Assembly (NCBI GenBank): GCA_016196885.1
Contig: JACPWU010000039.1
Span: 49,847 to 81,846, forward strand
From: Chlamydiota bacterium
GTDB lineage: Bacteria > Auribacterota > JACPWU01
Length of the DNA stretch: 32,000 nt
Direction: 5' to 3'
The notes under the pieces were generated by a model. The model did no database searches. It was given only the letters and a program-made list of their open reading frames with translations, and was not told where the DNA came from. Both the position numbers and the translations under genes were made by a program. Position 1 is the first letter of the stretch. Every line of letters starts with the position of its first letter. Of the stretch, positions 2,713-32,000 are shown in pieces.

Positions 2713-2783
2713 AGTCCCAATAGGAGGTTGAATGTGTTTTCCACACTTCAAACGCTTCTTATATTTGGTGAACGAGGGGGTTC

Positions 2784-8941: not shown

Positions 8942-8943
8942 GA

Positions 8944-9015
8944 ACAGTTGTGAGTGGTGAGAGGTGAGTTTTAAAGGTATTATTTTTTTACTCACCCCTC
9001 ACCCCTCACGACTGT
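8944..9015. repeat. long hairpin, GTGAGNN / NNCTCAC units, conserved loop (cleanest copy)
   Basis: Left arm acagttgtgagtggtgagaggtgag, loop ttttaaaggtattatttttttac (8969-8991), right arm tcacccctcacccctcacgactgt. About 21 of 24 positions are complementary. It is followed by TTTT. Confidence 0.85.
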
Positions 9016-9033
9016 TTTATAATACTTAAGTTC

Positions 9034-9062
9034 TTGCTATCCCAATTGTTCTATCTTATACT
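9034..9062 (+). promoter_or_regulatory. candidate sigma70-type promoter for the chemosensory cluster
   Basis: TTGCTA (9034-9039), a 17-nt spacer, then TATACT (9057-9062), about 64 nt upstream of cheW ATG 9126 and just after the 8944-9015 hairpin. This is a motif match only. Confidence 0.3.
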
Positions 9063-9125
9063 GTTCGTGGGTTCGAGGTTTCTAAAATTGAAGGTTGCTC
9101 ATAAAGGGAATTCTATTACCTCACG

Positions 9126-9635
9126 ATGAGTCAACAGGATCAAGCCGAAAGCCCACTTTCTCTTTACGAAGAGGAGTTGTACGGGGAGAAGGAAGTTCGA
9201 GAAGCGACCCGTCAGCTCATCGTCTTTTCTTTAGGCCCAGAATACTATGGGCTTGATGTTTGCGGTGTTTGTGAGGTTCTTGCGTCTTCTCAGATGACGC
9301 TTCTTCCGAATGTTCCGCCCCATATCAAGGGGATTATCAATTTGCGAGGGATCATTCTTTCCGTTTCAGATCTCAAGGTAATCTTGGGTCTTCCAGAAAG
9401 TTCTCAAAATCAAAAAAATCAGATTGTGGTTGCCCAGAGCTGTAAGATAGCCACAGGTTTCTGGGTGGATGGGAACACGGAGTCTATTGAAATTTCCATT
9501 TCAAAAATTCAACCTTTGGTTTCAACATTAGATGCCCAGAAGGCTTCTCTGATGCAGGGTCAGGTGGATTATTTGGGAAGGTTGGTAACGGTGTTGGATG
9601 TGGATGCAGTGATTCAGAAGACGAGGGTGGGATAA
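9126..9635 (+). CDS. cheW: chemotaxis coupling protein CheW
   Basis: Single CheW-like domain: QLIVFSLGPEYYGLDVCGVCEVL, IKGIINLRGIILSVSDLKVILGL. Confidence 0.9.
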   Translation: MSQQDQAESPLSLYEEELYGEKEVREATRQLIVFSLGPEYYGLDVCGVCEVLASSQMTLLPNVPPHIKGIINLRGIILSVSDLKVILGLPESSQNQKNQIVVAQSCKIATGFWVDGNTESIEISISKIQPLVSTLDAQKASLMQGQVDYLGRLVTVLDVDAVIQKTRVG

Positions 9636-9640
9636 AAAAA

Positions 9641-9704
9641 TAGCGTTCAGCATTCAGCGTACAGTTTATAAGGAATAATTTTTTTCCTGAACGCTGAACG
9701 CTGA
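9641..9704. repeat. hairpin, TTCAGCG / CGCTGAA units, conserved loop
   Basis: Left arm tagcgttcagcattcagcgtacag, loop tttataaggaataatttttttcc (9665-9687), right arm tgaacgctgaacgctga. It lies 5 nt after the cheW stop. Confidence 0.8.
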
Positions 9705-9718
9705 AAAAGGGGGGGGAT

Positions 9719-11095
9719 ATGAGCAAACTCTGGTTTGCAGTGTGGTGGACGGCATTCATGATGGGCTTTTTAGAAGTGGCGCATGCCGACGAGGTTTCGG
9801 ATTTGAAAGAGACCGTTCGCCAGATGCAGGTCCAAATGGCGGTCATGCAAGAGGAGATTCAAGGTTTAAAGACGCAACTTCGTTCTCAGGAGGCAAGCAC
9901 TGTTTCGAGTCCTGCTCAAGCAGGGGCGCCGTCAGATGTTGCCACACTCAAAGAAGAAATGGCAGCCGTTGAAGAACAAGAGAAGGGGACTTTGGAACGC
10001 TTGGATGAGATGGTGAATTTTGATTTATATGCAACGCTGGCTTTTGAAAATTTTCAGAATACAGATTCTGCTTTTGATGCCCGCAATGTTGAACTTTTGG
10101 CAAGTGCTCATATGACGGATCGGTTGAAGGTCTATACAGAAATTGAGTTTGAACGGGCCTCTACAACCTTAGATGAACCTCAGCAGGGTGAAATTGAAGT
10201 GGAACAAGGGTGGTTAGAATATACGATCAATGATTATTTTAAGCCACGGTTTGGCGTCATGTTGGTTCCATTTGGAAAGTATAACTTAGAACATTTTGAG
10301 CCCTATCAAGAATTAACAGATCGGCCTATTGCTATCAGGCGAATCATACCCACCACCTGGGCGGAGGCAGGCGCGGGATTTACGGGCAATGCTTTTTTAG
10401 GAGATAAAGTGGGTGCTGAAGCGTTGAAAGATTTGTCGCTCAATTACCAAATTTATCTCGTGAATGGTTTAACCGATTTGATCAGTGACACAGGCACTCG
10501 AGATGCAAAAGGTAATTTTGGTTTTGATAGCAATAACAACAAGGCTTTTGTGGGCCGTTTGGGGATCAGTCCTCTTTCGGATCAGGAGGTGGGTGTCAGC
10601 GGCTATGTGGGTGATTATGATAGGGAGAATAACACCCTCTCAGGTGTGGATGTGGATTGGCATTTTAGCATTTCAAAATTTGAGTTGGTGGGAGAATATG
10701 CCTTCCTGAATCTTGAAGAAGGTTTTCAAGGATCTGAAGGAGATGAGGAAGATATATTGGCATCTCCCTTGCTTGTTCCTGACAGCATGGATGGAGGCTA
10801 TGTGGAACTCCGTTATCATTTTTGGTTTGAATGTTTAAACGGTACTTTTTTGAGAAGAGGTTTTGAGAGTCCCACGTTCACAGCTGTTCTGAGGTACGAT
10901 CGGGCCACCATCGCGGATGATACAGATGAAGGGGGGGGTGATAATCAGGAAGAACGATGGACCCTAGGGTTAAATTATCGTCCTGTCCAGACATGGGTGT
11001 ATAAAGCGGAGTATCAATTTAACGAGACGGACCATGAGGTTCTTGAACGGGGTGATAACGATGGGTTTATTGCTTCCGTGACGGCTGCGTTTTAA
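9719..11095 (+). CDS. outer-membrane porin-like beta-barrel protein with N-terminal coiled coil
   Basis: Signal peptide MSKLWFAVWWTAFMMGFLEVAHA, then a coiled-coil segment (VSDLKETVRQMQVQMAVMQEEIQGLKTQL), then alternating amphipathic strands. The C-terminal ...SVTAAF ends on an aromatic residue, as in OMPs. The overall layout resembles phosphate-selective porin O/P-type proteins. Confidence 0.55.
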   Translation: MSKLWFAVWWTAFMMGFLEVAHADEVSDLKETVRQMQVQMAVMQEEIQGLKTQLRSQEASTVSSPAQAGAPSDVATLKEEMAAVEEQEKGTLERLDEMVNFDLYATLAFENFQNTDSAFDARNVELLASAHMTDRLKVYTEIEFERASTTLDEPQQGEIEVEQGWLEYTINDYFKPRFGVMLVPFGKYNLEHFEPYQELTDRPIAIRRIIPTTWAEAGAGFTGNAFLGDKVGAEALKDLSLNYQIYLVNGLTDLISDTGTRDAKGNFGFDSNNNKAFVGRLGISPLSDQEVGVSGYVGDYDRENNTLSGVDVDWHFSISKFELVGEYAFLNLEEGFQGSEGDEEDILASPLLVPDSMDGGYVELRYHFWFECLNGTFLRRGFESPTFTAVLRYDRATIADDTDEGGGDNQEERWTLGLNYRPVQTWVYKAEYQFNETDHEVLERGDNDGFIASVTAAF

Positions 11096-11100
11096 TAATA

Positions 11101-11218
11101 CCGTACATCGTGCATCGTACTTCGTACTTCGAATACCGTGCAATCGCAATTTCGTTGTTACGATGTTCGATGTTCGCTGAACGATGTACTGCCTTTAAGT
11201 ACGATGCACGATGCACTG
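11101..11218. repeat. long imperfect hairpin of ACATCG/CGATGT-type units
   Basis: Outer stem gtacatcgtgcatcgtac (11103-11120) pairs with gtacgatgcacgatgcac (11199-11216) at 17 of 18 positions. The inner parts are unit arrays related, in inverted orientation, to the element at 20785-20887. Confidence 0.7.
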
Positions 11219-11237
11219 TCTTTAAGAGGAGAGGTCT

Positions 11238-11705
11238 ATGAAAAGAGTGTTATCCATTTTACTGGTGATGGCTGGGCTTCTGGCTGCCTCAGGAGTTTAC
11301 GCAAAAGAGATTGCGGTGATTGTGAATAAGGAGAATGGGACGAGCAACCTTTCGATGTCTGAGCTCTCCAGAATTTACGAGGGGAAGATGACGAGTTGGT
11401 CGAATGGTTCTCGTATGATGGTTATCAATCGGCCAACGGCTTCCCCGATCCGTTCGGCTTTTTATCGAACGGTGTTGGGGGTCGAGGCCGGCAAGCAATT
11501 TTTTCAGCCGGGGAGTCCCGTGCCTTTTAAGACGATGATTCAAGAATCGGATACGGCGACGAAACGCATGGTGAGTCAAATGCCCAATGCAGTGGGCTAT
11601 ATCTATGTTGATGCGTTGGATGATACGGTCAAGGCCGTTTCGATTGATGGGGCCTCTCTGACACCCGATGATATTAGCAGTGGAAGATATGCTTTGAAGG
11701 AATAG
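11238..11705 (+). CDS. PstS-like periplasmic substrate-binding domain protein (short, single lobe)
   Basis: Signal peptide MKRVLSILLVMAGLLAASGVYA. The motifs IAVIVNKEN, LSMSELSRIYEGKMTSW and NAVGYIYVDAL resemble the PBP_like_2/PstS family. At 155 aa it is only about half the size of a full PstS. Confidence 0.6.
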   Translation: MKRVLSILLVMAGLLAASGVYAKEIAVIVNKENGTSNLSMSELSRIYEGKMTSWSNGSRMMVINRPTASPIRSAFYRTVLGVEAGKQFFQPGSPVPFKTMIQESDTATKRMVSQMPNAVGYIYVDALDDTVKAVSIDGASLTPDDISSGRYALKE

Positions 11706-11710
11706 GGAAA

Positions 11711-11818
11711 GACAGTCGTGAGTGGTGAGTCGTGAGGGGTGAGTTTTATAGGTATGATTTTTCACTCACGACTCACCCCTCACGACTGTTTTACTCTTAC
11801 TCACCCCTCACGGCAGTT
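11711..11818. repeat. long hairpin, GTGAGNN / NNCTCAC units, conserved loop, with a duplicated right arm
   Basis: Left arm 11711-11743, loop ttttataggtatgatttttcac (11744-11765), right arm 11766-11789 with ~25 bp near-perfect pairing. A second partial 'TTTTAC + tcttactcacccctcacggcagt' copy follows at 11790-11818. Both right arms are followed by T4-5. Confidence 0.85.
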
Positions 11819-11850
11819 TTTACGGTTTTAGAAGAAAGGAGCTTTTGACC

Positions 11851-14283
11851 ATGACACGCTGGAGAGTCAGAACCACCCTGATCATTTTCTTTTTTCTGAT
11901 GGCGCTTCTTCCCGTGGCTCTGGTAGGTTACCGTGCTTATCAGGTAGCCAAACATTCCTTGCAGGAGAGGATTGGGCAAAGTTTACAGAGGCAGGCATTT
12001 ATTGTGATGGATGAAATTAATCGCATGCTTTTTGAACGCTATCAAAATGTGAAGAGCTGGGCGGTGGACTCGGTGATGGTGGATGTTTTGACGGAGGATG
12101 CAGATAGCAGGATCAGTGATCTTTTGAGTACGTTGAAACAGTCCTATGGATTCTATGGTGATTTGGTCTGTACAGATGCGAAGGGGAAGGTGGTGGCCGC
12201 AAGCCGCCGGGAACTCATTGGGAGAAACGAGTCTCAAAATCTATGGTTTCAAAATGCCCTGAGTGAAAATGGGGTGGTGGTTGAGGATTTAAAGAAGTCC
12301 GATTTAGTCGGAGGTTTTGGAATGACCTTTGCCAGTCCCATTCGAGTTTCTTCGGAAGGTTTGGGAGGCGCTTCTTCGGAAGGTGAGGGACAAACGTCCA
12401 GCCATTCTGGCATGAAGACCCTCGGTGTCATTGGGGCTGTCCTCAATTGGTCTGAGATTTTGGACCTTATTAATTCCATGCAAATTTTAGGAGAACAGGA
12501 TCAGAGCAAGTCGGCCTATGCCATTTTAATCAATCGGGAGGGGATGGTTTTAACGCAGCCTTATTTTGATGAGCGGGAAATTATTTTGAAGGAAAATTTG
12601 ATTCAAGAAGGATTGCAGTCTGCCCGCCGTGTGGTGCAAGGGGAAAGCGCTTACCTGGGGGAGCCGGGCCTGTATCAGGCCCAGGATTTGATTGGTTTTG
12701 CGCCTTCTCGAGGGTATCACGATTTCAAGGGCTTGGGGTGGTCCGTTCTGGTTTTTCAAAGAATGACGGAGGCCTTTAAGCCGATTCGCACTCTTCAAAT
12801 GCAGCTTTTGATCATCGGTCTTTTGCTTTTGGTGATTGTGACGACTGTTTCTTTTTTACTGGGAGGAAAAATCGCCCGGCCGATTCAGAGCATGGCCCAG
12901 CTTGCGGATGAAATTGCGAGGGAGGGAAATTTGAGTCGGAAAATGGAAATTCAAGGCCTTGTCTTAGGAAATGGGGATGACGGAACTCATGCCAAGACTC
13001 AAAATGAGGTGGTGCAATTGGCTTTAAGCTTTAACCGTTTGGTGGACAGCATGAAGGCCTTGGCTGGGCAGGCCCAGGCCATTGCGAATGATGATTTACA
13101 AAATAAATCTCTCGACGTTCATATCAAAGGAGATTTGGGAGAATCGTTTGCCCAAATGGTGAGAAATTTAAGACGATTGGCTGAGCAGGCGCAGGCGATT
13201 GCAAGCGATGATTTAAACAATGCGATTTTGTCAGAAGAGGCCAAGGGCACTTTGGGTGGGGCCTCGGCCTTGATGGTCAAGAATTTACGCGGCTTCGCCA
13301 AGCAGGCGGAGGCAATTGCCAATGATGATTTAGAGGATCAGGTTTTGGCGACAGAAGGAAAAGGAGATTTGGGGGGTGCGTTTGCCAAAATGGTGAGATT
13401 TTTGAAAGAGGTTGCTCAAAAGGCCACGCTTGCAGCCAATGGGAGTTTGACGAGGCGTATTGATCGCAAGGGAATTTTGTCAGATGCGTTTAACAAGATG
13501 ATTGATGGGCTTGCTGGGATTTTAGAGAAGATTAAAGAGACAGGTCTTCAGGTTGCGGGTGCGGCGGTCGAGATTAAGTCGGCTGCGGAAGAACAGGCAA
13601 GCGGGGCGGGAGAACAATCATCAACGGTGGCAGAGGTATCCACCACCATGGAAGAATTGGCGAGAACCGCTCAGCAAATTGCGAAAAACGCCCAGGCCGT
13701 GAGTCTAGCGGCCGAGAGAACTTTGGCCGAGATGTCCCAGATTCAGACGAAGGTGTCTCAGACGGCTCGTAAGATTTTGACCTTGGGTGAGAAGAGTCAA
13801 GCCATTGGAAATATTGTGAAAATCATTGATGATTTGGCGGAGCAGACCAATCTTTTGGCCTTAAACGCTGCGATTGAAGCGGCCCATGCGGGGGAGGCCG
13901 GAAAGGGATTTGCGGTGGTGGCAAGCGAGGTGAGGAAACTTTCCGAACGTTCTACGGAATCCACCAATGAAATTCGAACCCTGATCAGTGAAATTCAAGC
14001 CGAGACCAATGCGGCCGTGATGGGCATTGAAGATTCTACAAAACAGGTGAGCAAGGGATTGGAGACCGTTCAGGAATCTGTTCAGCAGGCCAAGGAAATT
14101 TCTGTTGCGACAGGACAGCAAAAGAGCGCTTCTGAACAAGTGGTGATTGCCATGAAGAACATTGATCAAGTGGCCAGACAATTTGCCTCTTCCACCAAGC
14201 AGTCTGCAGCCGCTTCAACTCAACTGGATCAACAAGTGGAATCTCTGAAAAATATGTTGGGTCAGTTTAAGTTGAAGGAATAA
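11851..14283 (+). CDS. methyl-accepting chemotaxis protein with large periplasmic sensor domain and poly-HAMP array
   Basis: Two TM helices flank a ~290 aa periplasmic region. They are followed by a HAMP domain plus 39-aa HAMP-like repeats and the MCP signalling domain ([38 protein letters not shown]). AAGGAG lies 9 nt before ATG 11851. The track start 11845 is a TTG. Confidence 0.9.
13063..13530 (+). repeat. tandem 117-bp (39-codon) coding repeats, the HAMP-like array inside the MCP gene
   Basis: Units start at 13063, 13180 and 13297 (gctgggcaggcccaggccattgcgaatgatgattta / gctgagcaggcgcaggcgattgcaagcgatgattta / gccaagcaggcggaggcaattgccaatgatgattta). A degenerate fourth unit starts at about 13414. 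Confidence 0.85.
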
Positions 14284-14470
14284 ATAATGTGCCAATGTGA
14301 TGGCAATAGCAGTGAAACAATATTTGATGGTTTTCTTTAACCCCTCCAGCTCCCCTTTCCCACAGGGACTATAAGAGCTTGAAATAAGGGGAGGGCTCCC
14401 CTCTTATTTCAAGAGGTTATAGTCCCCGTGGGAAAGAGGGGTTGGGGGAGTTATTTCATTGGCACATTAT
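14284..14470. repeat. nested inverted repeats filling the whole mcp-cheA intergenic space
   Basis: Outer inverted repeat aataatgtgccaatg (14284-14298) pairs with cattggcacattat (14457-14470). An inner ~57-nt-arm imperfect palindrome is centred near 14395 (..cccctttcccacagggactataagagcttgaaataaggggag / ctcccctcttatttcaagaggttatagtccccgtgggaaagagggg..). Confidence 0.8.
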
Positions 14471-14471
14471 C

Positions 14472-16793
14472 ATGAAAATCGACAAGTCTCGCTTTATCGC
14501 AACTTTCATCACGGAGGCTCAGGATTATTTAACCCTTCTCAATCAGGGATTGGTGAGATTAGAGAAGGAGGGCTCTAACCTAGAGCTTTTGGCCGAGCTT
14601 TTTCGAGTGGCGCATACTTTGAAAGGGGCTTCTCAGATGATGGGCTTCATGAAAATCAGAACGGTGGCCCATCAATTGGAAGATGTGTTTGATTTTTTAA
14701 AGGAAGGGAAACTTAAATTGGAAGGAGGCATTGCGGATCTGGTTTTTAATTCTTTAGATAGAATCAAAATGGGTCTAGAGCACATTGCGAAGACCCAAGA
14801 GGAGGAAATCCAGACGGATGATCTTTCCTCCCGATTTTCTGAAGTTTGTGGTCCGATTGAAAAAGAATCAACTCCTTCCAACATTTCCAAGCGTGGAGAT
14901 ACTGAAAAACCCAAAGAATTTTCTCCTCCCTTGACTCCGTTGAAAGAGATTCTGCCCAGTGAAAAAAGAGGGCCCAGGCGTGAAGCGGTTTCTCCAGGGG
15001 CCAGCGTTGCTTCGACGGATGAATATATTCGCGTCCCCGTGAGCCGCATCAATGACCTTTTGAATTTGATGGGGGAGATGGTGATCAGCAAGGTAAAATC
15101 CTCTTACAAGATGACGCTCTTTAAACGCCTTTCAAAGCAGGCCCTCATTTCGGAAAGAATGCTTTATGAGCTTGAGACGCTCATCAAAGATCAATTGGAG
15201 ATTCAGGATATTCTCTTTGAGAACAAGGGGTCTGTCCTTCGTGGGTCTCAGGGAAAGGCCTCTCGTTTACTAGATCAATTGCATCAAGTGGAAACAGTTT
15301 TTGGGGATTTTAGAAGAGAATTTTCAACTCTCTCCGACGATATTCAAAATGAGATCTTTCATCTGAATCCCGTGATTGAAGAACTTCAGCAAAAAATGAA
15401 AGAGATTCGCATGCTTCCTTGTGCGACCCTTTTTGAGGGCTTCCCGAGATTGGTGAGGGATATTGCAAAACAAGAAGGAAAGGAAGTCAATTTTCTCGTT
15501 CAAGGAGAGGAAACAGAACTGGACAAGAAGGTTTTAGAGGCCATTAAGGGACCGTTGATTCATGTTTTAAGAAATGCGATGGATCATGGGATTGAAGGAG
15601 CCCAAGAGAGGTTGGCTTTGGGAAAGCCAAAAGAGGGAAATATTGTTCTGGGGGCTTATCAAGAGGGGAGCAAGGTAGTCATTCAGGTTCAGGACGATGG
15701 TCGGGGAATTGATTTAGAGGGGGTGAAGGCCACGGCGCTTAAGAAAAATTTGGTGGATGCCCAGAAATTGCAAGAGATGAAAGAAGAAGAAATACTAAGT
15801 TTAATTTTCATGGACGGATTTTCTACGGCTCCCATTGTGACAGATGTTTCGGGTCGGGGGGTGGGCCTGAGCGTGGTGCGATTGGAGTTAGAAAAATTAA
15901 AAGGATCTGTGCGTGTCTTGAGTGAAAAGGGAAAGGGGACCACCGTCCGATTAGAACTCCCTTTAACCATTGCCATTCTTCAAGTGCTTTTGGTTTCTGC
16001 CGGAGGCGTCCAATGGGCTTTCCCCATGCCCAATTTGGAGGAGAGCCTGAAAGTTGCGTGGTCTCGTGTGGCCACCATTGAAAATCGCATGGTGATTCAA
16101 GTGAGAAGTCAGTCTGTGCCGGTGATTCCTCTGGTGGATGTATTGGGTGTGAGGCAAGGATCTGCGGATGAGAGGCAAGAAGAGATGACAGTGGTTGTGG
16201 TGAATTCATTGGGGAAACGGATCGGCTTTGCGGTGGATCATGTTTTGGGGGAACGGGAAGTTTTTATTAAAAATTTGGGAGCTCATTTGAGCAAAGTGAA
16301 AGGAGTGAGTGGGGCTACGATTCTAGCGAGTGGAGAGGTGATTGTGATTCTGGATGTTCAGGATTTGGTTATTCAAGCCCAGTCTGCTTCGCCCAGAGCC
16401 CCTTTAGGGCATGAGCGTTTTGTCAAGGTTCAAAAAAAGGTTTTGGTAGTGGAAGATTCTCTCACGACCCGAGAATTGGAGAAAACGATTTTAGAAAACA
16501 ATGGATTTGAAGTGGAAACGGCGATTGATGGATTAGATGCACTGGAGAAATTAGGAAAATTATCTTATGATGTGGTGGTTTCTGATATTCAAATGCCTCG
16601 CATGGACGGTTTTGAATTGTGCAAAAACATTCGCCTCAGTGAGAAGTGGAAGGAGCTTCCTGTGATTTTTGTGACGGCCCTTTCCAAAGAGGAGGAGAAG
16701 CGCAAAGGAATCGAAGTTGGGGCCCAGGCCTATATTATCAAAAGTCAATTTGATCAGAAAAATTTACTAGAAATGGTCAATAGATTTGTGTGA
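14472..16793 (+). CDS. cheA: chemotaxis histidine kinase CheA fused to a C-terminal receiver domain
   Basis: Contains an Hpt domain (FRVAHTLKGASQMMGF), a dimerisation region, HATPase_c (DDGRGID, GRGVGLSVV), a CheW-like domain and a REC domain (VLVVEDS..DVVVSDIQMPRMDGFEL). MKIDKSRF at ATG 14472 is the typical Hpt start. The track start 14442 (TTG) lies inside the intergenic palindrome. Confidence 0.9.
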   Translation: MKIDKSRFIATFITEAQDYLTLLNQGLVRLEKEGSNLELLAELFRVAHTLKGASQMMGFMKIRTVAHQLEDVFDFLKEGKLKLEGGIADLVFNSLDRIKMGLEHIAKTQEEEIQTDDLSSRFSEVCGPIEKESTPSNISKRGDTEKPKEFSPPLTPLKEILPSEKRGPRREAVSPGASVASTDEYIRVPVSRINDLLNLMGEMVISKVKSSYKMTLFKRLSKQALISERMLYELETLIKDQLEIQDILFENKGSVLRGSQGKASRLLDQLHQVETVFGDFRREFSTLSDDIQNEIFHLNPVIEELQQKMKEIRMLPCATLFEGFPRLVRDIAKQEGKEVNFLVQGEETELDKKVLEAIKGPLIHVLRNAMDHGIEGAQERLALGKPKEGNIVLGAYQEGSKVVIQVQDDGRGIDLEGVKATALKKNLVDAQKLQEMKEEEILSLIFMDGFSTAPIVTDVSGRGVGLSVVRLELEKLKGSVRVLSEKGKGTTVRLELPLTIAILQVLLVSAGGVQWAFPMPNLEESLKVAWSRVATIENRMVIQVRSQSVPVIPLVDVLGVRQGSADERQEEMTVVVVNSLGKRIGFAVDHVLGEREVFIKNLGAHLSKVKGVSGATILASGEVIVILDVQDLVIQAQSASPRAPLGHERFVKVQKKVLVVEDSLTTRELEKTILENNGFEVETAIDGLDALEKLGKLSYDVVVSDIQMPRMDGFELCKNIRLSEKWKELPVIFVTALSKEEEKRKGIEVGAQAYIIKSQFDQKNLLEMVNRFV

Positions 16794-16803
16794 GGATAAC
16801 CTT

Positions 16804-17580
16804 ATGAAAACTTCATTAAGCATTCTGGTCGTGGATGATGATTCCGGAATCCGGGATTTGTTTGAGAGGATTTTGGAGTCTCAAGGGCATCAGATTGAAA
16901 AGGCGGCTGATGGTTTTGAGGCTGTTGAATGGGCGGGAGAGAAGTCATTTGATTTGGCATTTGTAGATTTGAGAATGCCGGGCCTCAATGGGGTAGATAC
17001 CCTTGCAAAATTAAAAGGAATTCAACCGGAGATCACCATGGTGATCATGAGTGCCCAACCCATGGAGGAGGAGATTGAAAAAGCATGGAAATTGGGGGTT
17101 TACGGCTGCATGGTCAAACCCTTTGATGTCATGAAGGTTCTTCATATCGTAGAGACCATTCAAGTGGCGAAAGAAAAACTTGAGATTAGGCCCAGCGGGA
17201 TTCAAGTTCTCGTCATTGATGACAGCGCTTTGATACGGGATTATTTTACCGTTCTTCTTTCCAAGCAAGGACATGCAGTGGATGTGGCCCGTGATGGGGA
17301 AGAGGGGATCCAGAAGGTTCAGAAAAAATCTTACCATGCTATTTTTTTAGATATTTTAATGCCGGGCCTCAACGGCGTTGAAACCCTGAAGAGGATTCAA
17401 ACTGTGAATTCCAAAATTCCTGTTATCATGATGACGGGTTTTAGTTGTGGGACTGAAAATTTGGTGGAAGAGGCGTATTCATTAGGGGTTTGGGCCGTTT
17501 TGGAAAAGGCCATTGATTCTGCTGAGATTGAAGAAACGCTCGAAAGTGTGCTCAAGAAATCAGGAGTGAAAAACGAATGA
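16804..17580 (+). CDS. response regulator with two tandem receiver domains and no output domain
   Basis: REC1 is ILVVDDDSGIRD..DLAFVDLRMPGLNG. REC2 is VLVIDDSALIRD..HAIFLDILMPGLNG. GAGGA lies 7 nt upstream of ATG 16804. The track start 16786 (TTG) overlaps the cheA stop. Confidence 0.85.
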   Translation: MKTSLSILVVDDDSGIRDLFERILESQGHQIEKAADGFEAVEWAGEKSFDLAFVDLRMPGLNGVDTLAKLKGIQPEITMVIMSAQPMEEEIEKAWKLGVYGCMVKPFDVMKVLHIVETIQVAKEKLEIRPSGIQVLVIDDSALIRDYFTVLLSKQGHAVDVARDGEEGIQKVQKKSYHAIFLDILMPGLNGVETLKRIQTVNSKIPVIMMTGFSCGTENLVEEAYSLGVWAVLEKAIDSAEIEETLESVLKKSGVKNE

Positions 17581-17628
17581 AACATTCATGCCGACTGAGG
17601 TCGGCACAAAAGGGGATGAAAATCACCC

Positions 17629-17704
17629 TTGTAGTCGCCCCATTTATGGGGCGGTCTATGACATTGTGGCATTGGGCATTGCCCGATAAATCGGGCGACT
17701 ACAA
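17629..17704 (+). repeat. REPIN-like doublet, copy 3
   Basis: Sequence: ttgtagtcgccccatttatggggcggtctatgacattgtggcattgggcattgcccgataaatcgggcgactacaa. The termini match copy 2 but the spacer differs. Confidence 0.8.
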
Positions 17705-17749
17705 GTCATCATGAGTCATTGTATAAGAATGACTAAAGACTATTTTCAG

Positions 17750-17826
17750 GTGAAAAGTGAAGAATGGATAGTGAAAAGTGAAAAATTGAAAACCCGTTAA
17801 CATTTTTCACTTTTCATTTTTCACTC
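17750..17826. repeat. hairpin of GTGAAAA / TTTTCAC units
   Basis: Left arm gtgaaaagtgaagaatggatagtgaaaagtgaaaaa, loop ttgaaaacccgttaaca, right arm tttttcacttttcatttttcactc. It lies upstream of cheB. Confidence 0.75.
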
Positions 17827-17843
17827 TTAATTATTGAAAAACT

Positions 17844-18887
17844 ATGATCCGCGTCCTCGTTGTTGAAGATTCACTCCTAGAAACTAAATTAATTTCCGAA
17901 ATCTTGGGTTCGGATCCTGACGTGACTGTGATCGCAGTGGCTCGAGACGGAAATGAGGCCATTGCCCAAGTTGAAAAATTGCGTCCAGATCTTGTGACGA
18001 TGGACATTCACATGCCCAAAATGGACGGCCTTGAAGCGACCAAGCAAATCATGGCTTATCATCCCACGCCCATCTTAGTCTTGAGCTCTTCTATTTTTAG
18101 CCGAGGTGCGGACAAAGCCTTTAAGGCGATGTCTTATGGTGCATTGGATGTTGTAGAAAAGGCTTTTTTTAAAGGGAAAGAATTAGACGAGGTCTGGAGA
18201 AAGGAATTTCTTGAGAAGGTTAAATTTCTTTCCAAGATCAAGGTCATTCCTCACCCCTTGGCCAAACTCGAGAAAGGTTTTAAACACGCGGATCTTCCTC
18301 CTATTTGCGCCAAGACAAGCGGGGGAATGAAAATTGTCGCCATGGTTGCTTCCACGGGCGGTCCGCAAGCCCTTCTTGAAATTCTCAAATCACTCCCCAA
18401 AAATTTTCCTGCCCCTTTGGTTTTGGTTCAGCATATTGCCTCGGGTTTTACGGAAGGGTTTGTGAAATGGTTATCGGATCAGACACAGGTGAAAGTCAAA
18501 ATGGCGCAGCAGGGGGAAGCTTTAAATCCTGGCGTTGTCTATGTGGCCCCTTCAGGTTTACAGATGCGTGTGACCCCAACGCACAAAATTGAGTTGAAGG
18601 ATGATCCGCCGTATGATGGCCTTCAACCATCGGGCACGGTGCTTTTGAAATCTGCGGCCTTGGCCTTTGGAAATCAGAGCCTCGGCGTCGTTTTATCTGG
18701 GATGGGAAAAGACGGAGCAGAAGGGTTAAAGTGTATTTACGAAACCAAAGGACATACCCTTGTCCAGGATGAAATGAGCTCCGTTGTTTATGGGATGGCC
18801 AAGGCGGCCATGGATCTGGGTGTGGTACATGAGGCTTTGCCCCTCAGTGAAATTGCGAGTAGGATTATTAAGTGGGTAGGTGCTTAA
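17844..18887 (+). CDS. cheB: protein-glutamate methylesterase CheB (REC + esterase)
   Basis: N-terminal REC (IRVLVVEDS..DLVTMDIHMPKMDG) plus a CheB esterase domain (VAMVASTGGPQAL, LSGMGKDGAEGL). Confidence 0.9.
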   Translation: MIRVLVVEDSLLETKLISEILGSDPDVTVIAVARDGNEAIAQVEKLRPDLVTMDIHMPKMDGLEATKQIMAYHPTPILVLSSSIFSRGADKAFKAMSYGALDVVEKAFFKGKELDEVWRKEFLEKVKFLSKIKVIPHPLAKLEKGFKHADLPPICAKTSGGMKIVAMVASTGGPQALLEILKSLPKNFPAPLVLVQHIASGFTEGFVKWLSDQTQVKVKMAQQGEALNPGVVYVAPSGLQMRVTPTHKIELKDDPPYDGLQPSGTVLLKSAALAFGNQSLGVVLSGMGKDGAEGLKCIYETKGHTLVQDEMSSVVYGMAKAAMDLGVVHEALPLSEIASRIIKWVGA

Positions 18888-18950
18888 GTGTCTAAGTGTT
18901 TAAGTGATAAGGAAGGATTTTTTTACTTAAGCACTTAGCACTTACGCACT
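18880..18950. repeat. hairpin of TAAGTGNN / NNCACTTA units, conserved loop
   Basis: Left arm gtgcttaagtgtctaagtgtttaagtga, which includes the cheB stop codon. Loop taaggaaggatttttttac (18908-18926), right arm ttaagcacttagcacttacgcact. Confidence 0.8.
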
Positions 18951-18963
18951 AGGAGTCTTAAAA

Positions 18964-19416
18964 ATGCTCACAGTCGTTTTTAAATTGGCCTCAGAGTGTT
19001 TTGGTATTCCGGTCGAACAGGTGAAGGAAGTGGTGAAATTGTCTGTGACAAGACCCCTTCCTCAGGCCCCCTCTTTTGTGGACGGAATCATCGCTTTGAG
19101 GGGACACAGTGTGGCGGTGATGGATTTGGCAAGAAGGCTGAATATTGCAAGAGGAGATCTTCAGGGCAAAGACCGCAAGGTTTTGATTGTGAGGGTTGAG
19201 CAGAAGATCTTGGGCTTGATTGTGGATGATGTCATGAGCGTTTTGGAAGTAGAGCAAAAGGCAATAGATGCCGCGGCCCGTGTCGTGAATGGTTCTTGGC
19301 AGGGGAAGGCGGTGGCAGGGATTGCCCATTCGGGAGGTAAAGAGATCATCCTTCTGGATTTAAAAAATTTGCTCAATCCTGAAGAAAATCAAGCCTTAGA
19401 GAAGGTTAAACGCTAA
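18964..19416 (+). CDS. cheW: chemotaxis coupling protein CheW
   Basis: CheW-like domain: FKLASECFGIPVEQVKEV, VDGIIALRGHSVAVMDLARRL. AGGAG lies 8 nt before the ATG. Confidence 0.9.
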   Translation: MLTVVFKLASECFGIPVEQVKEVVKLSVTRPLPQAPSFVDGIIALRGHSVAVMDLARRLNIARGDLQGKDRKVLIVRVEQKILGLIVDDVMSVLEVEQKAIDAAARVVNGSWQGKAVAGIAHSGGKEIILLDLKNLLNPEENQALEKVKR

Positions 19417-19420
19417 AGCC

Positions 19421-20815
19421 ATGGAACTTTCGCTGGAGGTGTTTCGTCAATTTCAAAGATTTTTGGTGGAGGAGTCAGGTCTTTATTTTTCAGAGGATCG
19501 AAAAGCCTCCTTACAGCAAAAATTAGATGAGCGAATCAGAATTTGCGAACGAGCCACCTATGAAGAGTATTTTCATTATCTCAAATTTCATCCTCAGGGA
19601 CGGCTTGAATTAAAAGCCCTTCTCGATCTTCTCACGATTGGTGAGACCTATTTTTTTCGCAATGAACCACAGTTCGAGGCCTTGAGGGATTATGTGTTGC
19701 CAAATATTCTTAAAGAGAAGAAGGACACTTTAAGGATTTGGAGCGCAGGCTGCTCTACCGGGGAAGAGCCTTATTCGATTGCCATGCTTTTAAGGGAACA
19801 TCTTACCTTCTTTGAGAACTGGGAAATTTCCATTTTAGCCACCGATATCAATCAAAATGTTTTGAAGGCTGCTCAAGAGGGTATTTACAACGCTCGGGCC
19901 GTTCACGCCATGCCTACAGAATATCTTCAGAAATATTTTGTTCAAAAGGGACAGAAATTTTGGATTTCGGAAGAAATAAAAAAAATGGTGCAATTTCAAT
20001 ATCATAATTTAGTTCGAGATCCCTTCTCTTTGCCTCTCATGCAAAATCTAGACATTCTCTTTTGCAGGAATGTAATCATTTATTTTAACATCGAGACGAT
20101 TCGGCGTATCCTTTCTCAGTTTGCAGAGTGCCTCCTGACGGACGGATTTCTTTTTGTGGGACACGCAGAGACCTTGTGGAATCTCTCGGATGATTTTAGC
20201 CCCATCGAATTTCCTCAGACATTTCTTTATCAGAAAACAGAGGGTCCCGCTTCAAAACGTTCTCGACCTCCCGAAATTTTATTACCGAGTTTTGAAAAGG
20301 TAGATGAAGATGTGCCGATGGACCGATGTGCCCATGTGCCAATGAAAAAAAAGGACAGGCGTTCATCGGCACATCGGCACATCGGCACATGGGTACAAAT
20401 GATGTCTCAAGCCGTTCATTTGGCAAACGAGGGAAGGTATGAAGAGGCTCTGATCGGTGTTGAAAAAATAATTCATGAGAATAACCTCCATCTTCAGGCC
20501 CATTTTTTAATGGGGGTTCTCTTGGCGAAACTTCATCGTTATGAAAAGGCGGTGAAGCAGTTTGAGAGGGTGCTCTACATTGATGAGAAAATGTCTATTG
20601 CCTATTTTCATCTGGGACATTTGTATCGCCTGACGGAGAAATTTGAAAAAGCGAAAAAGGCTTATGAAAATTGTCTGAATATTTTGGAGAAAAAAAAGGT
20701 AGATGAAATAATCCCTTTTTCGGAAGGCTTGACCGTGGGGGTTTTGAACGAGGCGACGCATCGGGCCTTGGAAACGCTTAAAGACAGTACATCGTACAGC
20801 GAACATCGTACTTAA
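19421..20815 (+). CDS. cheR: chemotaxis protein methyltransferase CheR with C-terminal TPR region
   Basis: CheR N and SAM-binding domains are present (ETYFFRNEPQF, RIWSAGCSTGEEPYSIAML, ILFCRNVIIYF). The C-terminus has TPR-like repeats (YEEAL..NLHLQAHFLMGVLLAKLHRYEKAVKQFERVLYID..AYFHLGHLY). It starts 4 nt after the cheW stop. Confidence 0.9.
   Translation: MELSLEVFRQFQRFLVEESGLYFSEDRKASLQQKLDERIRICERATYEEYFHYLKFHPQGRLELKALLDLLTIGETYFFRNEPQFEALRDYVLPNILKEKKDTLRIWSAGCSTGEEPYSIAMLLREHLTFFENWEISILATDINQNVLKAAQEGIYNARAVHAMPTEYLQKYFVQKGQKFWISEEIKKMVQFQYHNLVRDPFSLPLMQNLDILFCRNVIIYFNIETIRRILSQFAECLLTDGFLFVGHAETLWNLSDDFSPIEFPQTFLYQKTEGPASKRSRPPEILLPSFEKVDEDVPMDRCAHVPMKKKDRRSSAHRHIGTWVQMMSQAVHLANEGRYEEALIGVEKIIHENNLHLQAHFLMGVLLAKLHRYEKAVKQFERVLYIDEKMSIAYFHLGHLYRLTEKFEKAKKAYENCLNILEKKKVDEIIPFSEGLTVGVLNEATHRALETLKDSTSYSEHRT
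20309..20396. repeat. hairpin of 4 x 8-nt units per arm (GATGTGCC / CATCGGCA) located inside the cheR coding sequence
   Basis: Left arm 20309-20344, loop aaaaaaaaggacaggcgtt at 20345-20363, right arm 20364-20396. It is translated in frame as DVPMDRCAHVPMKKKDRRSSAHRHIGTWV in the linker between the CheR and TPR domains. Confidence 0.8.
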
Positions 20816-20887
20816 GGACAGTACATCGAACATCGAACATCGTGATTTTGTTGTTGCGATGTACGAAGTACGAAGTCCGATGTACGG
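20785..20887. repeat. imperfect hairpin of ACATCG / CGATGT-type units overlapping the cheR 3' end
   Basis: Left arm cagtacatcgtacagcgaacatcgtacttaaggacagtacatcgaacatcgaacatcgtga; its first 30 nt encode the CheR tail STSYSEHRT plus the stop. Right arm gcgatgtacgaagtacgaagtccgatgtacgg, followed by TTTT and an AGGAG Shine-Dalgarno. Confidence 0.7.
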
Positions 20888-20902
20888 TTTTAGGAGAACG
20901 TT

Positions 20903-22084
20903 ATGAAACAGCGAATTCTGATTGTGGACGACAGCCCTTTGATTCATCAAATGTACGGCGCCCAATTTGAAGAGGCCGGTTTTGAGGTGCTTCACGCCCA
21001 GGATGGGATTGAAGCCATCAATGCTGCTTTTACCCAGATGCCGGATCTCATTCTTCTCGACATCAACATGCCTAAAATCAATGGTTATCAAGTTTGCCGT
21101 CTCTTGAAGGATCACCGGGATACCAAGACCATTCCTATTATTATTGAGACAAGCAAAACTTCAGCAACTCCTGTGGCAGATCCCAAGATGTGGAGTTTCG
21201 AAACGGGAGCAGATGGCTACATTGATAAGGAAGAACCTATGACGGCGGTAGATTTTGTGAGGCCTTTTTTGGCCAAAATTCCTGCAAAGAAAAGGGATGA
21301 CAGTCAAAACAAACCGATGACAGAAACAGAGATCATGACAGCCCTCTCTCATCTTTTGGATAAGCAATTGTACGTCAACGTGACTCATTTAAAAGAGCTC
21401 AATGAAAGAAAGAACGCCTTTGTAACCAATGTCTCTCATGAGTTCAAATCACCTCTCACGGTGATGAAGGTGGGTTTGGAAGATATTCTGAACGAGGCTT
21501 GCGGTCCCACAACACCGCAGCAGAAAGAAAATCTTGAAAGGGTCATTCAGACGGTGAATCGCCTGGGCCGTTTGGTGGTAGACCTTCTGGATATTTCTAA
21601 AATAGAAGCTGGGAAGATGACCTTGAATGTTCAAAAAGTCGATTTGTCAGAATTGATGGAGGAGGTGATTCGAGCTTATGCGGTGATGGTGAAAGAAAAA
21701 AAGATGCATCTGATAAAGGATATTCCGGCAAACCTTTTTGTGACGGGTGACAAAGACAAGTTGATGCAGGTCATCATCAATGTCCTTCATAATTCTCTTA
21801 AATACACACCTCAAAAAGGGAAGGTGATGGTTCAATTAAAAAAATGGGAGAAAGAAGTCAGGCTTGAAATTGAAGATACAGGACCTGGGATTACGAAGGA
21901 AAACCTCGAAAAAATTTTTGATAAATTTGTCCGTATCACCGCCGAAAAGAGAGAAGGAACGGGCCTGGGTCTTCCCATTGCCCGGGATTTGGTGCTGCTT
22001 CACGGAGGCAAGATCTGGGCTGAATCTGAGTCTGGTAAGGGATCCAAGTTTGTCATTGTTTTACCTGTCTCTCCTGCTAAATAA
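20903..22084 (+). CDS. hybrid response regulator / sensor histidine kinase (REC-HisKA-HATPase_c)
   Basis: REC domain ILIVDDSPLIHQ..DLILLDINMPKINGY, HisKA H-box FVTNVSHEFKSPLT, and HATPase N/G boxes (NVLHNSLKYTP, DTGPGI, GTGLGLPI). AGGAG lies upstream of the ATG. Confidence 0.9.
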   Translation: MKQRILIVDDSPLIHQMYGAQFEEAGFEVLHAQDGIEAINAAFTQMPDLILLDINMPKINGYQVCRLLKDHRDTKTIPIIIETSKTSATPVADPKMWSFETGADGYIDKEEPMTAVDFVRPFLAKIPAKKRDDSQNKPMTETEIMTALSHLLDKQLYVNVTHLKELNERKNAFVTNVSHEFKSPLTVMKVGLEDILNEACGPTTPQQKENLERVIQTVNRLGRLVVDLLDISKIEAGKMTLNVQKVDLSELMEEVIRAYAVMVKEKKMHLIKDIPANLFVTGDKDKLMQVIINVLHNSLKYTPQKGKVMVQLKKWEKEVRLEIEDTGPGITKENLEKIFDKFVRITAEKREGTGLGLPIARDLVLLHGGKIWAESESGKGSKFVIVLPVSPAK

Positions 22085-22198
22085 ATCATTACTCCTTTTT
22101 ACATTTTTCCTATCCAGAAGTGTCCTTATCTAACGAGAAGGTCTGCTGTTTTTTAGAATGTTTTTTTAACCATTTCCACTAGAATAAGTTATAAAAAT

Positions 22199-25100
22199 AT
22201 GCCCTTTTTTAGAAAGATCATCAGTCTTTTTCTCTGCCTTTCTTTAAGTCTCAATGAGGCTTGGACCTGGGCTCAGGAAGCACCTCTTTTTAGCCATTTT
22301 CTAGAAAATTTCAAGATTCCTCACGTATTAGGAGAAACAATTGAGAAATGTATCTTTCCGGGAAGGCCTTTGCTTTTCATCCTTGAGGATATTCATGCTC
22401 AAACGGAGGTCCAAAGGAATCTCGAGGGCATTTTAAAAGCGCTTCAATCTCTCAATCAACATTTGAATCCTGGTTCTCATTTCAAGGTGTTTGTGGAGGG
22501 AGCCGTGGGTCTCATGGATATGAGTTTTTTTACGAGCTTCCCAGAGGATCAAGCCTTCCGTATGGCTCGGAAAAGTTTTCTCGAAAAAAATGAAATCACA
22601 GGGGCTGAATCTTTCTTGATGAGTAAAGAAGGGCAAAAGTCTGAAGGATTTGGAGTGGAAGATTTTGATGCGTATTGGAAGAACGTGGAGTGGATGGGAA
22701 AGTTGATGGAGGGACAAAATCGCCAAGAAAATGAATGGCAAAGTTTGGAGCAAACTTTAAAGGCTTTGCGCCAGAAAGTTTATTCAAAGGAGTTGAGAAC
22801 ATTGAGTGAGAAGAAAGAGGCCTATGAAGAAGGAAGAGTAGGAATAGAGGGGTATGTAACTTTTCTTTCTTCTTTTACCGGATCTCTTGCCCCCATGATT
22901 CAGAAATTTCTCGCATTGAAAGATCTAGAGTCGCGTATCGATCATGGAAAAGTAGATCAAGAATATTTGTCCTATTTGGAAGTTTTGGAGAAGAAACTAT
23001 CTGAAGAAGAAGTGAAAGAGTTATTGAAAAATATTTTGGAACATCGTTTGGGAAAGGTGAGGGATGAGGATCATTACCTTTACTTGAAGCAGTATGATGA
23101 AAGGGTCAAGGGTCAAGGGTCAGGGGTCAAGAAATTCAGAAATTTAGAATTGCTTTTTGAACAGATGAAACTTTTAAAAGAAATATCGTGGAATCGATTG
23201 CAGTCTGAGGTGAAGGCATTAGAGAAACAGTTGATAAATCGGTGGGCAATAAGCTCAGGGGCCAAGGCGTTGATCGAACTGGAAGAAGATTATGGCTTGT
23301 TGAAGCGAGTGGTTTCGATGGAAGGGAAGAGAGAAGACATAAAGACAGTGTTCAGCGTACAGCGTGTAGCGGACAGGGAAGACAGGACCGGTGTCATTGA
23401 CCTTCGTCATTTCGTTCATCGTCTAAAAATTCTTGCTCAAGAAAACGATGTGGCGTTTGAAGACCCTGATCTTTACGAAACCTTTCAAATGGCCTCTCAC
23501 TTTTACGAGCAAGTTCTAAAACGGGATGGAATTTTTTGTGAAAAAATTTTGGATCAGATGAAGGATGAAAAAAATTCTTGTGCGGCTTTTGTGGTCGGAG
23601 GCTTTCATGCGGATGGCCTCAAAGAAAGGTTAAAGGAGGCCAAAATAGGTTATTGGATTGTGGCTCCTCGTTTTGTAGGACGTGAAAATCGCTCTTTTTA
23701 TTTTCAAAAGATGAAGGAAAAATTTGAAGAGAGGGAAGTGCTTAAGAAAACGCTTTCTTTGCCAGCCCAAACCAATGAAGGGATTGCTACGGATAGGGCT
23801 GTTTTTGAAAAAGCTCACGAGGGTTTTGCCCGAACGTTGGTTGGATGCGTGCTGAGAATCAATCCGCAGAGATTAGACAGGACATTTTTTGGGAAGTGGG
23901 AAGCGGGGATCAATGACCGAGGATTAAAAGGAATGATTCTAAAAATGAGAGACGGATGTCTCTCTCGTGATTCGAGCGCTCATCGGTCTTTTCTTGGGAA
24001 GAACTGGTTACAAGAAAGAAAAGAATGTAATGCAGAAATTCTAACGTCGATGAGCCCTGATGAATTGAAGGGCTCATCGAGAACGGTATCGATGCAAATC
24101 CCCCAATCTCTTGCTGCTGCAACTCGGCATGGATTGGGAGAGGCTTTGTCAGAAGCGGCTTTGAGGGACATTGCGGACGAGAGCCAGGCTCGTCCTGTGG
24201 AAGCAGGGGAGTTCGACCCTATTCTAAATCTTTTAAGCGAGGTCCAGAGTCGGGCGTCTCCTGAAAATAGAATAGATGCATTGAAATTGAATGAATTGGT
24301 AGATGCGGTACGATCAGGAATAGCATCAGGCCAAATTGAATTTTATCATCAACCTCATCCTTATCGTCCTGATTTGGCTGCGTTCGCACGACGTGGTGAA
24401 CATGGCCGACTTCGAATCTATCTTTCCGGCGATTTAGCTATTTCTTCTGAGGGAGAATTTACGCTTCAACATCTCTATGCCCTCGTTGGCTTTTTTCATG
24501 AGGCTCATGAGCAAATCACATTGGCCCGGCAATATCCCTCTCTTGATCCCCGCATTCGTCATCGCATGGCAGTTTATGATGAGGCGCGGCTGATGCAGAC
24601 TTTGCAAGGGAGGCTGCCCAGCATTCTTCGTCATCCTGTGCTGAGTCCTCTCACGGTGCATGAGCTTTGGCGGATGGATGATGAAACTTTAAGTGAAGTG
24701 GCTCAGAATACGGCATTAAAACTTTCCGAGCATGCGGTCGATTTTGAAAGCATGCCCGAATATCATCATGCGGCCGAAGCTTATACCCGGGCTGTAGAGG
24801 ATGATGAGAAAAGTTCGGATCGGAGGGGAGAAAATCTTAATTATGTGTTTTCAAGTGGTTTAGGAAGAAGTGTTCAAACTTTAGCATTGAACCTGGGTGC
24901 GCTTCGAAGAAGATCAAATGTTGGGGATTTGGTTATGGTACTTCCTCCTACCGGAGAAAGGGATCCGGCTCAGGTATACGTTCGAATGAACGGCTCAATG
25001 AATGTAAGTTTTCCCATCGATTCTGAACTTAGTTCAATTTTTGCCTTTCATCGCATTTATTCCTTAAAAATCCCTGCGGGTTTTCAAGCGGAACTTATTC

Positions 25101-32000: not shown

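Follow-up and report, generated by a model that had tools for sequence, protein, structure and literature searches.

In Omnitrophota and other bacteria of the Planctomycetota-Verrucomicrobiota-Chlamydiota (PVC) group, giant open reading frames (ORFs) have been described whose products contain transmembrane (TM) helices, have few domains with an annotation and show poor conservation, and for which roles in adhesion, predation or cell-wall attack have been proposed (PMC10066038; 10.1101/2023.11.21.568195; PMC12057145). Peptidase domains of such giants have been considered possible self-processors (10.1101/2023.11.21.568195), and in a catalogue of 916 long Omnitrophota proteins 39% combine a signal peptide with TM helices (10.64898/2026.06.07.730766). 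The published thresholds for a ‘giant’ are >=10,000 amino acids (aa) or ORFs >20 kb (10.1101/2023.11.21.568195; PMC10066038; 10.64898/2026.06.07.730766). These genes constitute an open puzzle, in that neither the export route nor the cleavage of their products is settled. The subject of this study is a gene on the + strand of a 32,000-nucleotide (nt) stretch of a Chlamydiota-labelled genome (the whole stretch is hereafter ‘the window’), which begins with an ATG at position 22199, runs off the end of the window, and encodes a leader, a conserved N-terminal head domain (termed M1 here) and a long body. We have high confidence that it is a single, real coding gene that extends over at least 3,307 codons, and a member of an M1-headed family. 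Its product is a compact variant of the giant proteins of PVC bacteria, from a genome labelled Chlamydiota and with a body of rare modules, a tie that is drawn because the M1 head is directly homologous to proteins of Omnitrophota metagenome-assembled genomes (MAGs).

The initial annotation of the window had described a single uninterrupted frame from 22199 to 32000, too long to have arisen by chance and missing from the accompanying ORF track, and these points have stood up to analysis. Translation of 22154-32000 gives, from the ATG onward, 3,267 full codons plus 1 nt with zero stops, the one stop of that interval being the TAG that closes the frame upstream (Table 1). Between this TAG and the ATG lie 14 sense codons, none of them ATG, GTG or TTG, and ATG 22199 is the earliest canonical start. 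At the base composition of the window, the chance of 3,267 codons free of stops is ~1.6e-90. The coding signal is uniform, because the frequency of G at codon position 1 is steady (0.30-0.40 over the whole ORF) and the remaining two forward frames are dense in stops (13-25 per 300 codons along their entire length). Since the other 17 + strand genes of the window terminate in TAA, TAG or TGA, the genetic code is standard, with no recoding. The ORF track displays only short ORFs in this region (up to 195 aa) because the program that listed them skips ORFs that run off the source sequence. In composition the protein justifies the earlier label ‘E/K/L/R-rich’ only to a mild degree (E 9.4, L 11.9, R 7.7 and K 6.0%).

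Comparison of assemblies revealed neither an indel nor an in-frame stop. The window and NCBI contig JACOUD010000028.1 (34,130 bp; MAG GCA_016178005.1) differ by 0 indels and 2 single-nucleotide polymorphisms across 21.1 kb that cover the whole ORF; the two substitutions, at window positions 31125 (T>C, I2976T) and 31642 (synonymous G>C), indicate that window and contig stem from one population, as two assemblies or strains of it. For SRR12113387, the Logan assembly supplies an identical 8.9-kb piece that covers 22199-26629 (the first 4.4 kb of the ORF). On the NCBI contig the frame continues stop-free for 40 more codons to the contig end, where it is called as a protein of 3,307 aa, and the contig extension that had been recommended for finding the stop codon therefore still ends within the gene. 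The independent assemblies all end there, at most ~120 nt apart at the 3' side (window 32000; the end of JACOUD010000028.1 corresponds to window 32121), as might be expected if a repeat, or a segment that varies between strains, followed directly. Searches of JGI metagenomes and GTDB genomes with exact 50-mers taken from the end of the contig found no match, and neither did a back-translated scan of reference genomes, GCA_016178005.1 itself being absent from the GTDB representative set; the match returned from the representative library, P0007 (3,267 aa), is the window’s own translation, which leads us to infer that the window represents the terminal part of a contig from another assembly. The full protein is probably nearer 3,700-4,000 aa, judging by its C-terminal similarities, since relatives of the last recovered module (M5) run on for another 400-680 aa.

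The part of the protein that ties it to other giants is its head. We define here an unnamed family by a hydrophobic N-terminal leader followed directly by M1, at the start of a long ORF with a variable body, and the giant protein displays both the leader with the conserved M1 residues and the N-terminal placement of M1 in a long ORF. Its aa 1-545 can be aligned to those of 8 relatives and, beyond these, to 85 other sequences; its first 560 aa match six hypothetical proteins, five of them of Chlamydiae MAGs, and the closer relatives are 33-44% identical. The AlphaFold2 model of M1, with a predicted local distance difference test (pLDDT) score of ~90, displays an alpha/beta core that is split by a helical insertion of ~280 aa. 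Across 86 sequences, residues D64, H66, Q72, E100, G101, G152, E154, Y159, R442, GGFH467-470, P490 and Y501 are 91-100% conserved (0.91 for D64, 0.99 for H66 and E100, and 1.0 for G152, Y159, R442, G467-H470 and P490), and the conserved D-x-H, E, E, R and GGFH elements look like an active site. In loose outline these motifs resemble those of the TraB/Tiki/ChaN/erythromycin-esterase superfamily (a hydrophobic strand with D-x-H, a strand with E, an R-D helix, and a strand with GG-x-H-x-x-G), but M1 was not placed there: hhalign against E. coli YbaP (TraB family) returned a probability of 0.4%, Pfam gave 0/9 members, and neither profile nor fold comparison produced a match.

A profile of M1 confirmed at least 504 loci in JGI metagenomes, of which 80 were fetched for the architecture counts that follow. 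M1 is N-terminal in these loci, its envelope starting at residues 1-69 in all but two ORFs. Complete ORFs (n=40) extend over 516-3,679 aa, with 25 of the 40 exceeding 1,800 aa, and 15 ORFs are still open at 3,829-3,905 aa, the limit of the fetched flank. A leader is found in 54 of the 67 M1 ORFs longer than 1,000 aa, and later TM helices in about half. The bodies are hypervariable: among the 45 ORFs that exceed 1,800 aa, 25 are singletons past aa 600, with M1 as their sole common part. Three of the fetched ORFs are known at NCBI as proteins of MAGs, the label being Candidatus Omnitrophota for two; one carries a phosphoglucomutase (PGM) domain and another a TRPM8-N (SLOG-like) region. M1 also opens the giants P0008, P0011, P0016 and P0022, and other giants that carry M1, M3 or M4 (the last two being body modules described below) are from Chlamydiota and from Ca. 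Theseobacter exili (Auribacterota, within the PVC group). The cargo of related giants includes RelA/SpoT with HEAT repeats, LOG/SLOG with methyltransferases, an SF1 helicase, a His-phosphatase with a CheR-type methyltransferase, and an MBL hydrolase. On sequence grounds, the giant protein is thus one member of a large M1-headed family in PVC bacteria (Omnitrophota, Chlamydiota and Auribacterota), in which the head is followed by a long succession of shuffled cassettes that is specific to each lineage. The initial account of it has to be qualified accordingly: it is indeed a real single gene, without a full-length match to any characterised family, but it is not an isolated oddity, and the concern that its homologues might always be separate genes is answered by M1 heads that are usually fused to long bodies.

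Set beside the published giants with signal peptides and TM helices, the protein agrees with them in its labelled PVC lineage, in a predicted leader and predicted TM helices, in its few annotated domains, in the possibility of processing by peptidases, and in the occurrence of cytoplasmic-type enzyme domains in predicted exported regions. It differs from them in that Pfam finds no SecA-DEAD, C39, S8, dockerin or carbohydrate-active domains, and in that its M3, M4, M5 and helix-turn-helix (HTH) units occur in none of the 80 Omnitrophota-type M1 loci. A limited search of the literature on PVC giants found no mention of Chlamydiota giants or of a conserved N-terminal head, which is no proof of novelty; within that literature, the present protein (~3.3-4 kaa) is a compact member from a lineage for which such giants are not mentioned.

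MAG GCA_016178005.1 contains at least four M1 genes, the giant included. One of them (P0002) is a 625-aa M1-only gene with an 82-nt overlap, in another frame, with the next gene, P0018 (JACOUD010000031.1; L003 10001-16509), which encodes 1,570 aa with a TM module and M3; the pair may represent a giant divided by a frameshift, or else a head and a body that are naturally separate. Toxin-antitoxin-like pairs (MNT/HEPN, PIN, HepT/MNT) lie around this locus, at L003 59-782, 3519-4186 and 9028-9644. On JACOUD010000023.1 (L004 2638-14354) three co-directional genes are found: P0003, a 646-aa M1-only gene; an AceK-like kinase/phosphatase gene (725 aa, with a 4-nt overlap); and a complete 2,507-aa paralogue that carries a leader plus M1 (together 39% identical to those of the giant), several TM helices, His_Phos_1 and an ARMT1-like domain. 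Unannotated tandem repeats of ~95 aa (DIYxxSxxHFxxWGL...PYFxGSY...LGFxLDWST), absent from the giant, were observed at the C-terminus of P0008, at the N-terminus of P0010 and at aa ~3400-4000 of P0022.

The layout of the protein is collected in Table 1, with module borders taken from homologue comparison and leader and TM calls from hydropathy and charge heuristics. A scan of the whole protein returned HTH_8 as the sole Pfam domain; NCBIfam, PADLOC, PHROGs and PDB sequences added nothing beyond an HTH-tail match, and BLASTP found no internal repeats. These results agree with the initial annotation in its statements that Ig, cadherin, RTX and NRPS/PKS repeats are absent and that the mix of modules is unusual. 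Its proposals of a signal-peptide-like N-terminus and of membrane anchoring are likewise supported by hydropathy, in which the N-terminus is leader-like, a single strong TM helix stands out and further TM segments cluster at aa ~2410-2700. We rejected an origin from phage or from a defence system: PADLOC and PHROGs give the HTH-tail match only, and M3 occurs in no viral contigs and M1 once among 2.9 million. Two regions are orphans. Orphan region A, which was not put through the exhaustive representative search, has no homologue among the sequences retrieved and holds a weakly M3-like HEAHE (aa 767-771, nt 24497-24511); orphan region B has no homologue in the exhaustive search of 1.84 billion representatives and holds an HExxH-type HEVIH (aa 2118-2122, nt 28550-28564).

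Table 1. Features of the giant gene and its upstream border, in window coordinates.
Feature	Residues (aa)	Position	Strand	Basis or remark
REC-HisKA-HATPase hybrid kinase, last gene of the chemosensory (che) cluster		20903..22084	+	Context only
In-frame TAG closing the frame upstream		22154..22156	+	Translation
Giant ORF, stop codon not recovered		22199..32000	+	3,267 codons in window; at least 3,307 on JACOUD010000028.1
Sec-type leader (MPFFRK, 12-aa hydrophobic core, TWA|QEA)	1-28	22199..22282	+	Hydropathy and pattern only
M1 head	29-545	22283..23833	+	Family alignment, AlphaFold2 model
Orphan region A	546-1254	23834..25960	+	No homologue among sequences retrieved
Weak hydrophobic segment	958-976	25070..25126	+	Kyte-Doolittle 1.45; 4 K/R on C-flank
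Five tandem Fis/NtrC-type HTH units (predicted)	1255-1740	25961..27418	+	HTH_8 and iterative profile
Individual HTH units	1255-1326, 1341-1418, 1453-1530, 1559-1644, 1664-1740
M3 zincin-like module	1745-1965	27431..28093	+	Alignment, AlphaFold2 pLDDT 91.5
TM helix	1974-1992	28118..28174	+	Kyte-Doolittle 1.86; 5 K/R on N-flank, 2 on C-flank
Orphan region B	1995-2340	28181..29218	+	No homologue
M4 multi-helix TM module	2341-2715	29219..30343	+	Hydropathy, seven-copy alignment
M5 helical tail	2729-3267 and beyond	30383..31999	+	Two-protein similarity

The body begins, after orphan region A, with an array of predicted Fis-type DNA-binding units. Over the whole protein HTH_8 (PF02954) reaches 38.6 bits (E 8.9e-10), where Pfam’s gathering threshold is 22. 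Taken singly, two of the five units (22.4 and 21.7 bits) were counted at the Pfam threshold and three are too diverged; when the two Pfam-positive units serve as the seed, an iterative profile picks up the other three (E 9e-5, 0.017 and 1e-6 before inclusion). The resulting five-unit profile matches the HTH_8 consensus peptide and the DNA-binding domains of ZraR, Fis and NtrC over the HTH helices of Fis (E 0.001-0.04 in all, and 0.005-0.04 for Fis, NtrC and ZraR). What separates the array from known Fis/NtrC proteins is the presence of five tandem copies in one giant membrane protein, and the lack of an AAA+ or receiver domain. A sixth repeat that had been read by eye at aa 1152-1235 was not recruited by the profile.

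The modules downstream of the array are rare: a HMMER search with aa 1760-2959 against the 1.84 billion representatives recovered only 19 proteins. M3 is present in 12 of them, mostly giants of 2,800-5,900 aa; its place in the chain differs widely among them, one protein can hold as many as three copies, and relatives 45-55% identical exist. In 13 copies the invariant residues are G1868, N1869, D1873, R1892, G1899, H1902-E-x-x-H-E1907, L1926 and D1930, the HExxHE motif being encoded at nt 27902-27919. The AlphaFold2 model (pLDDT 91.5, predicted template-modelling score 0.90) places a sheet ahead of the HExxH helix and then the helix that bears the invariant Asp, the two helices occupying positions 145-164 and 172-193 of the modelled segment. 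In these respects M3 resembles zincin (gluzincin-type) metallopeptidases: its invariant HExxH lies on a helix between flanks that are conserved, and the following predicted helix bears, ~24 residues downstream, the invariant Asp as a candidate third ligand. It departs from them in that its N-terminal half is a separate alpha/beta subdomain, and assignment to a known zincin family was rejected, with neither a profile nor a fold match; a PU.1/ETS match of the N-terminal half (E 0.3) was dismissed as chance. Ahead of the module lies a conserved H-[FML]-[SD]-A-[EQ] segment (aa 1745-1760, nt 27431-27480), which forms a short beta bridge in the model with high confidence and may be a docked, substrate-like strand.

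CPBP/Rce1 intramembrane proteases are marked by EExxxR, FxxxH and HxxxN motifs in TM helices. The seven copies of M4 share KGxL, E-D, P-x-I-E(E), Y, R..F...H and T..K..P, with H...N in six of the seven; in the giant the corresponding motifs are PWIED (2411), R..FILPH (2437-2441) and HISSN (2689-2693), and it alone has an insertion of ~190 aa, which adds TM helices. The likeness to CPBP/Rce1 (PF02517) lies in the E-E/D, F...H and H...N elements within hydrophobic helices at similar spacing; it is incomplete in that the Arg stands 20 residues after EE, in place of EExxxR, and the profiles give no support to M4 as a CPBP protein. The module is bracketed by SKGVL (aa 2370-2374, nt 29306-29320) and GKGVL (aa 2705-2709, nt 30311-30325), and a (G/S/Q)-K-G-(V/I)-L bracket is also present in all compact M4 copies of relatives. 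It is a possibility that these KGVL-type motifs are cleavage sites. The M5 tail that follows shares 25-30% identity with two proteins over their aa 258-822; both run on for the 400-680 aa mentioned above and end in HEAT repeats.

From these motifs, models and phyletic pattern we put forward, tentatively and with low confidence, a mechanism in which an exported head is mounted on a membrane-threaded, protease-bearing platform. The leader would export the M1 head, hydrophobic helices would thread the rest of the chain through the inner membrane, and the product would sit in the envelope as a multi-functional platform. Its body would then carry the five Fis-type HTH units and two kinds of metalloprotease-like module, one soluble with HExxHE (M3) and one intramembrane (M4), and M3 and M4 might divide the chain into functional pieces or have their substrates in the envelope or the host. 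We infer a role in interaction with other cells, because PVC lineages of this kind are host- or prey-dependent and carry several divergent paralogues per genome. Taken as a whole, the reading that joins a genuine gene, family membership and this mechanism has about an even chance of being right.

A number of results weigh against that reading. M1 has no significant match in Pfam (9 members), NCBIfam, PDB sequences or Foldseek-PDB. M3 matches neither Pfam nor NCBIfam nor PDB sequences, and Foldseek finds nothing in PDB (best E 5.9) or BFVD. For M4, PF02517 recovers 0/7 members at E up to 10, with no PDB profile match and no significant Pfam, NCBIfam or Foldseek-PDB match, and in a two-block fold of M1 with M4 the M4 block is of low confidence (pLDDT mostly <70), the M1 block being good. 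The term ‘protease-like’ is accordingly a designation from motifs and the order of secondary structure. Inference from the family may not transfer to the body of this giant, because the 80 M1 loci share none of its M3, M4, M5 or HTH units. With >=3,307 aa and 9.9 kb recovered, the protein falls below the published length thresholds, and the M5 relatives suggest that the missing part amounts to several hundred residues rather than thousands; every assembly found lacks the gene’s 3' end and the DNA beyond it, and its taxonomy rests on the NCBI label ‘Chlamydiae bacterium’ only, which is attached to the proteins of GCA_016178005.1 and to the closest relatives. Finally, the two indicators of topology disagree. 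The leader predicts export of aa 29-1973, whereas the positive-inside rule predicts that the same stretch, HTH array and M3 included, is cytoplasmic, because five K/R precede the TM helix at aa 1974 and two follow it. The segment at aa 958-976, if it spans the membrane, would reconcile the two, although it is sub-threshold. Implausible localisations of a similar kind have been noted for Omnitrophota giants (10.1101/2023.11.21.568195).

Other explanations of the same gene deserve consideration. In the Zhang-Aravind framework, polymorphic toxins and MARTX proteins consist of an N-terminal trafficking part, variable cargo and a releasing protease, and Chlamydiota depend on hosts. M1 giants have a comparable plan, with a conserved N-terminus, hypervariable bodies, protease-like modules between cargo blocks (M3 up to three times per protein) and several divergent paralogues per genome; about half of them lack TM helices after the leader, and would hence be fully secreted, and their cargo (RelA/SpoT, SLOG/LOG, helicase, phosphatases) is typical of conflict systems. 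The giant could therefore be a secreted ‘train’ of effectors, in which the head would export the chain, M3 and M4 would release cassettes into a eukaryotic host, and the HTH array would act as a nucleomodulin. We consider this unlikely: the strong TM helix and the multi-TM module would hold part of the chain in the membrane, the domain searches gave none of the known types for trafficking, toxin, immunity or releasing peptidase, and no secretion-system gene adjoins the locus. The HTH units can also be read as those of a membrane-tethered transcription regulator, with an exported head that senses a periplasmic cue and M3 and M4 freeing the five-unit segment, possibly as a chemosensory output. 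Such a regulator would suit the Fis/NtrC type of the units, the charge bias at TM 1974 (by which the array and M3 would be cytoplasmic, provided that aa 958-976 crosses the membrane), the che cluster that ends in a REC-histidine kinase gene upstream on the same strand, and the CheR-type domain of a relative giant. It is nonetheless distinctly improbable, given that three of the five units fall short of the HTH_8 threshold, the array is absent from all relatives, aa 958-976 falls below the usual TM thresholds and che genes accompany a single related locus, in the opposite orientation; nor would it explain a size of 3,300+ aa or variable enzymatic cargo.

Still less probable, in our estimate, is a surface coat or adhesin for attachment to another cell, as has been suggested for the giant ORFs of Omnitrophota. 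M1 is shared with Omnitrophota proteins and published proposals favour adhesion or predation (PMC10066038; 10.1101/2023.11.21.568195), but the giant carries no Ig, cadherin, discoidin, dockerin or laminin-G domain and no long tandem repeats, and its recognisable parts are HTH and protease-like modules. The possibility that the gene is an artefact (an assembly chimera, an operon hidden by a frameshift, or a decaying pseudogene that is still open) draws on the break of every assembly inside the gene near its 3' side and on the split, overlapping P0002/P0018 locus. Against it stand a chance of ~1e-90, uniform periodicity with stop-dense alternative frames, the absence of indels relative to the NCBI contig over the whole ORF, the identity of the Logan contig over the first 4.4 kb, the retention of catalytic-type residues in M1, M3 and M4, and the prevalence of fused M1 giants elsewhere; we regard an artefact as barely credible.

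The locus is of interest for what it offers to the study of giants in general. M1, being conserved and confidently foldable, links giants of three phyla and could serve to find, classify and target them. M3 and M4 are candidate proteases with invariant catalytic-type residues and no known structural relatives, and with them the question of whether giants are cleaved becomes testable. A bolder extension, to which we assign a small probability, is that M1 marks one ancient export-and-processing system of Omnitrophota, Chlamydiota and Auribacterota, in which an active head would escort hypervariable trains of enzyme cassettes out of the cell, and modules such as M3 (zincin-like, with a fold that has no counterpart in the PDB) and the KGVL-bracketed M4 would cut them in cis to yield individual effectors. 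If that were true, the Chlamydiota protein would be a compact and tractable model for the making and use of the 10,000-147,000-aa giants of Omnitrophota.

The neighbourhood upstream of the giant gene is a complete chemosensory cluster (8018-22084) that encodes CheW, a porin O/P-like protein, a PBP-like protein, dCache-HAMP-MCP, CheA-CheW-REC, REC-REC, CheB, CheW, CheR-TPR and the REC-HisKA-HATPase kinase. No flagellar genes are present in the window, and the combination of CheR-TPR with a hybrid kinase suggests a non-flagellar output. The initial annotation had placed the giant 114 nt downstream of this cluster in the same orientation, and that spacing, from the kinase end at 22084 to the start of the giant, is correct; the + strand of the gap shows neither a promoter-like nor a terminator-like site, a result that is uninformative. 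The adjacency is not conserved, che genes flanking 1 of the 80 related loci, and a functional link between the giant and the cluster is unsupported by synteny. In that sole locus (L008 108-7080), an MCP and a CheA, 57% and 44% identical to those of the window, lie on the strand opposite to a 1,065-aa M1 gene. Separately, the relative P0012 (2,843 aa) contains a CheR-type SAM-methyltransferase domain at aa 717-898 (28.6 bits against a cut-off of 27).

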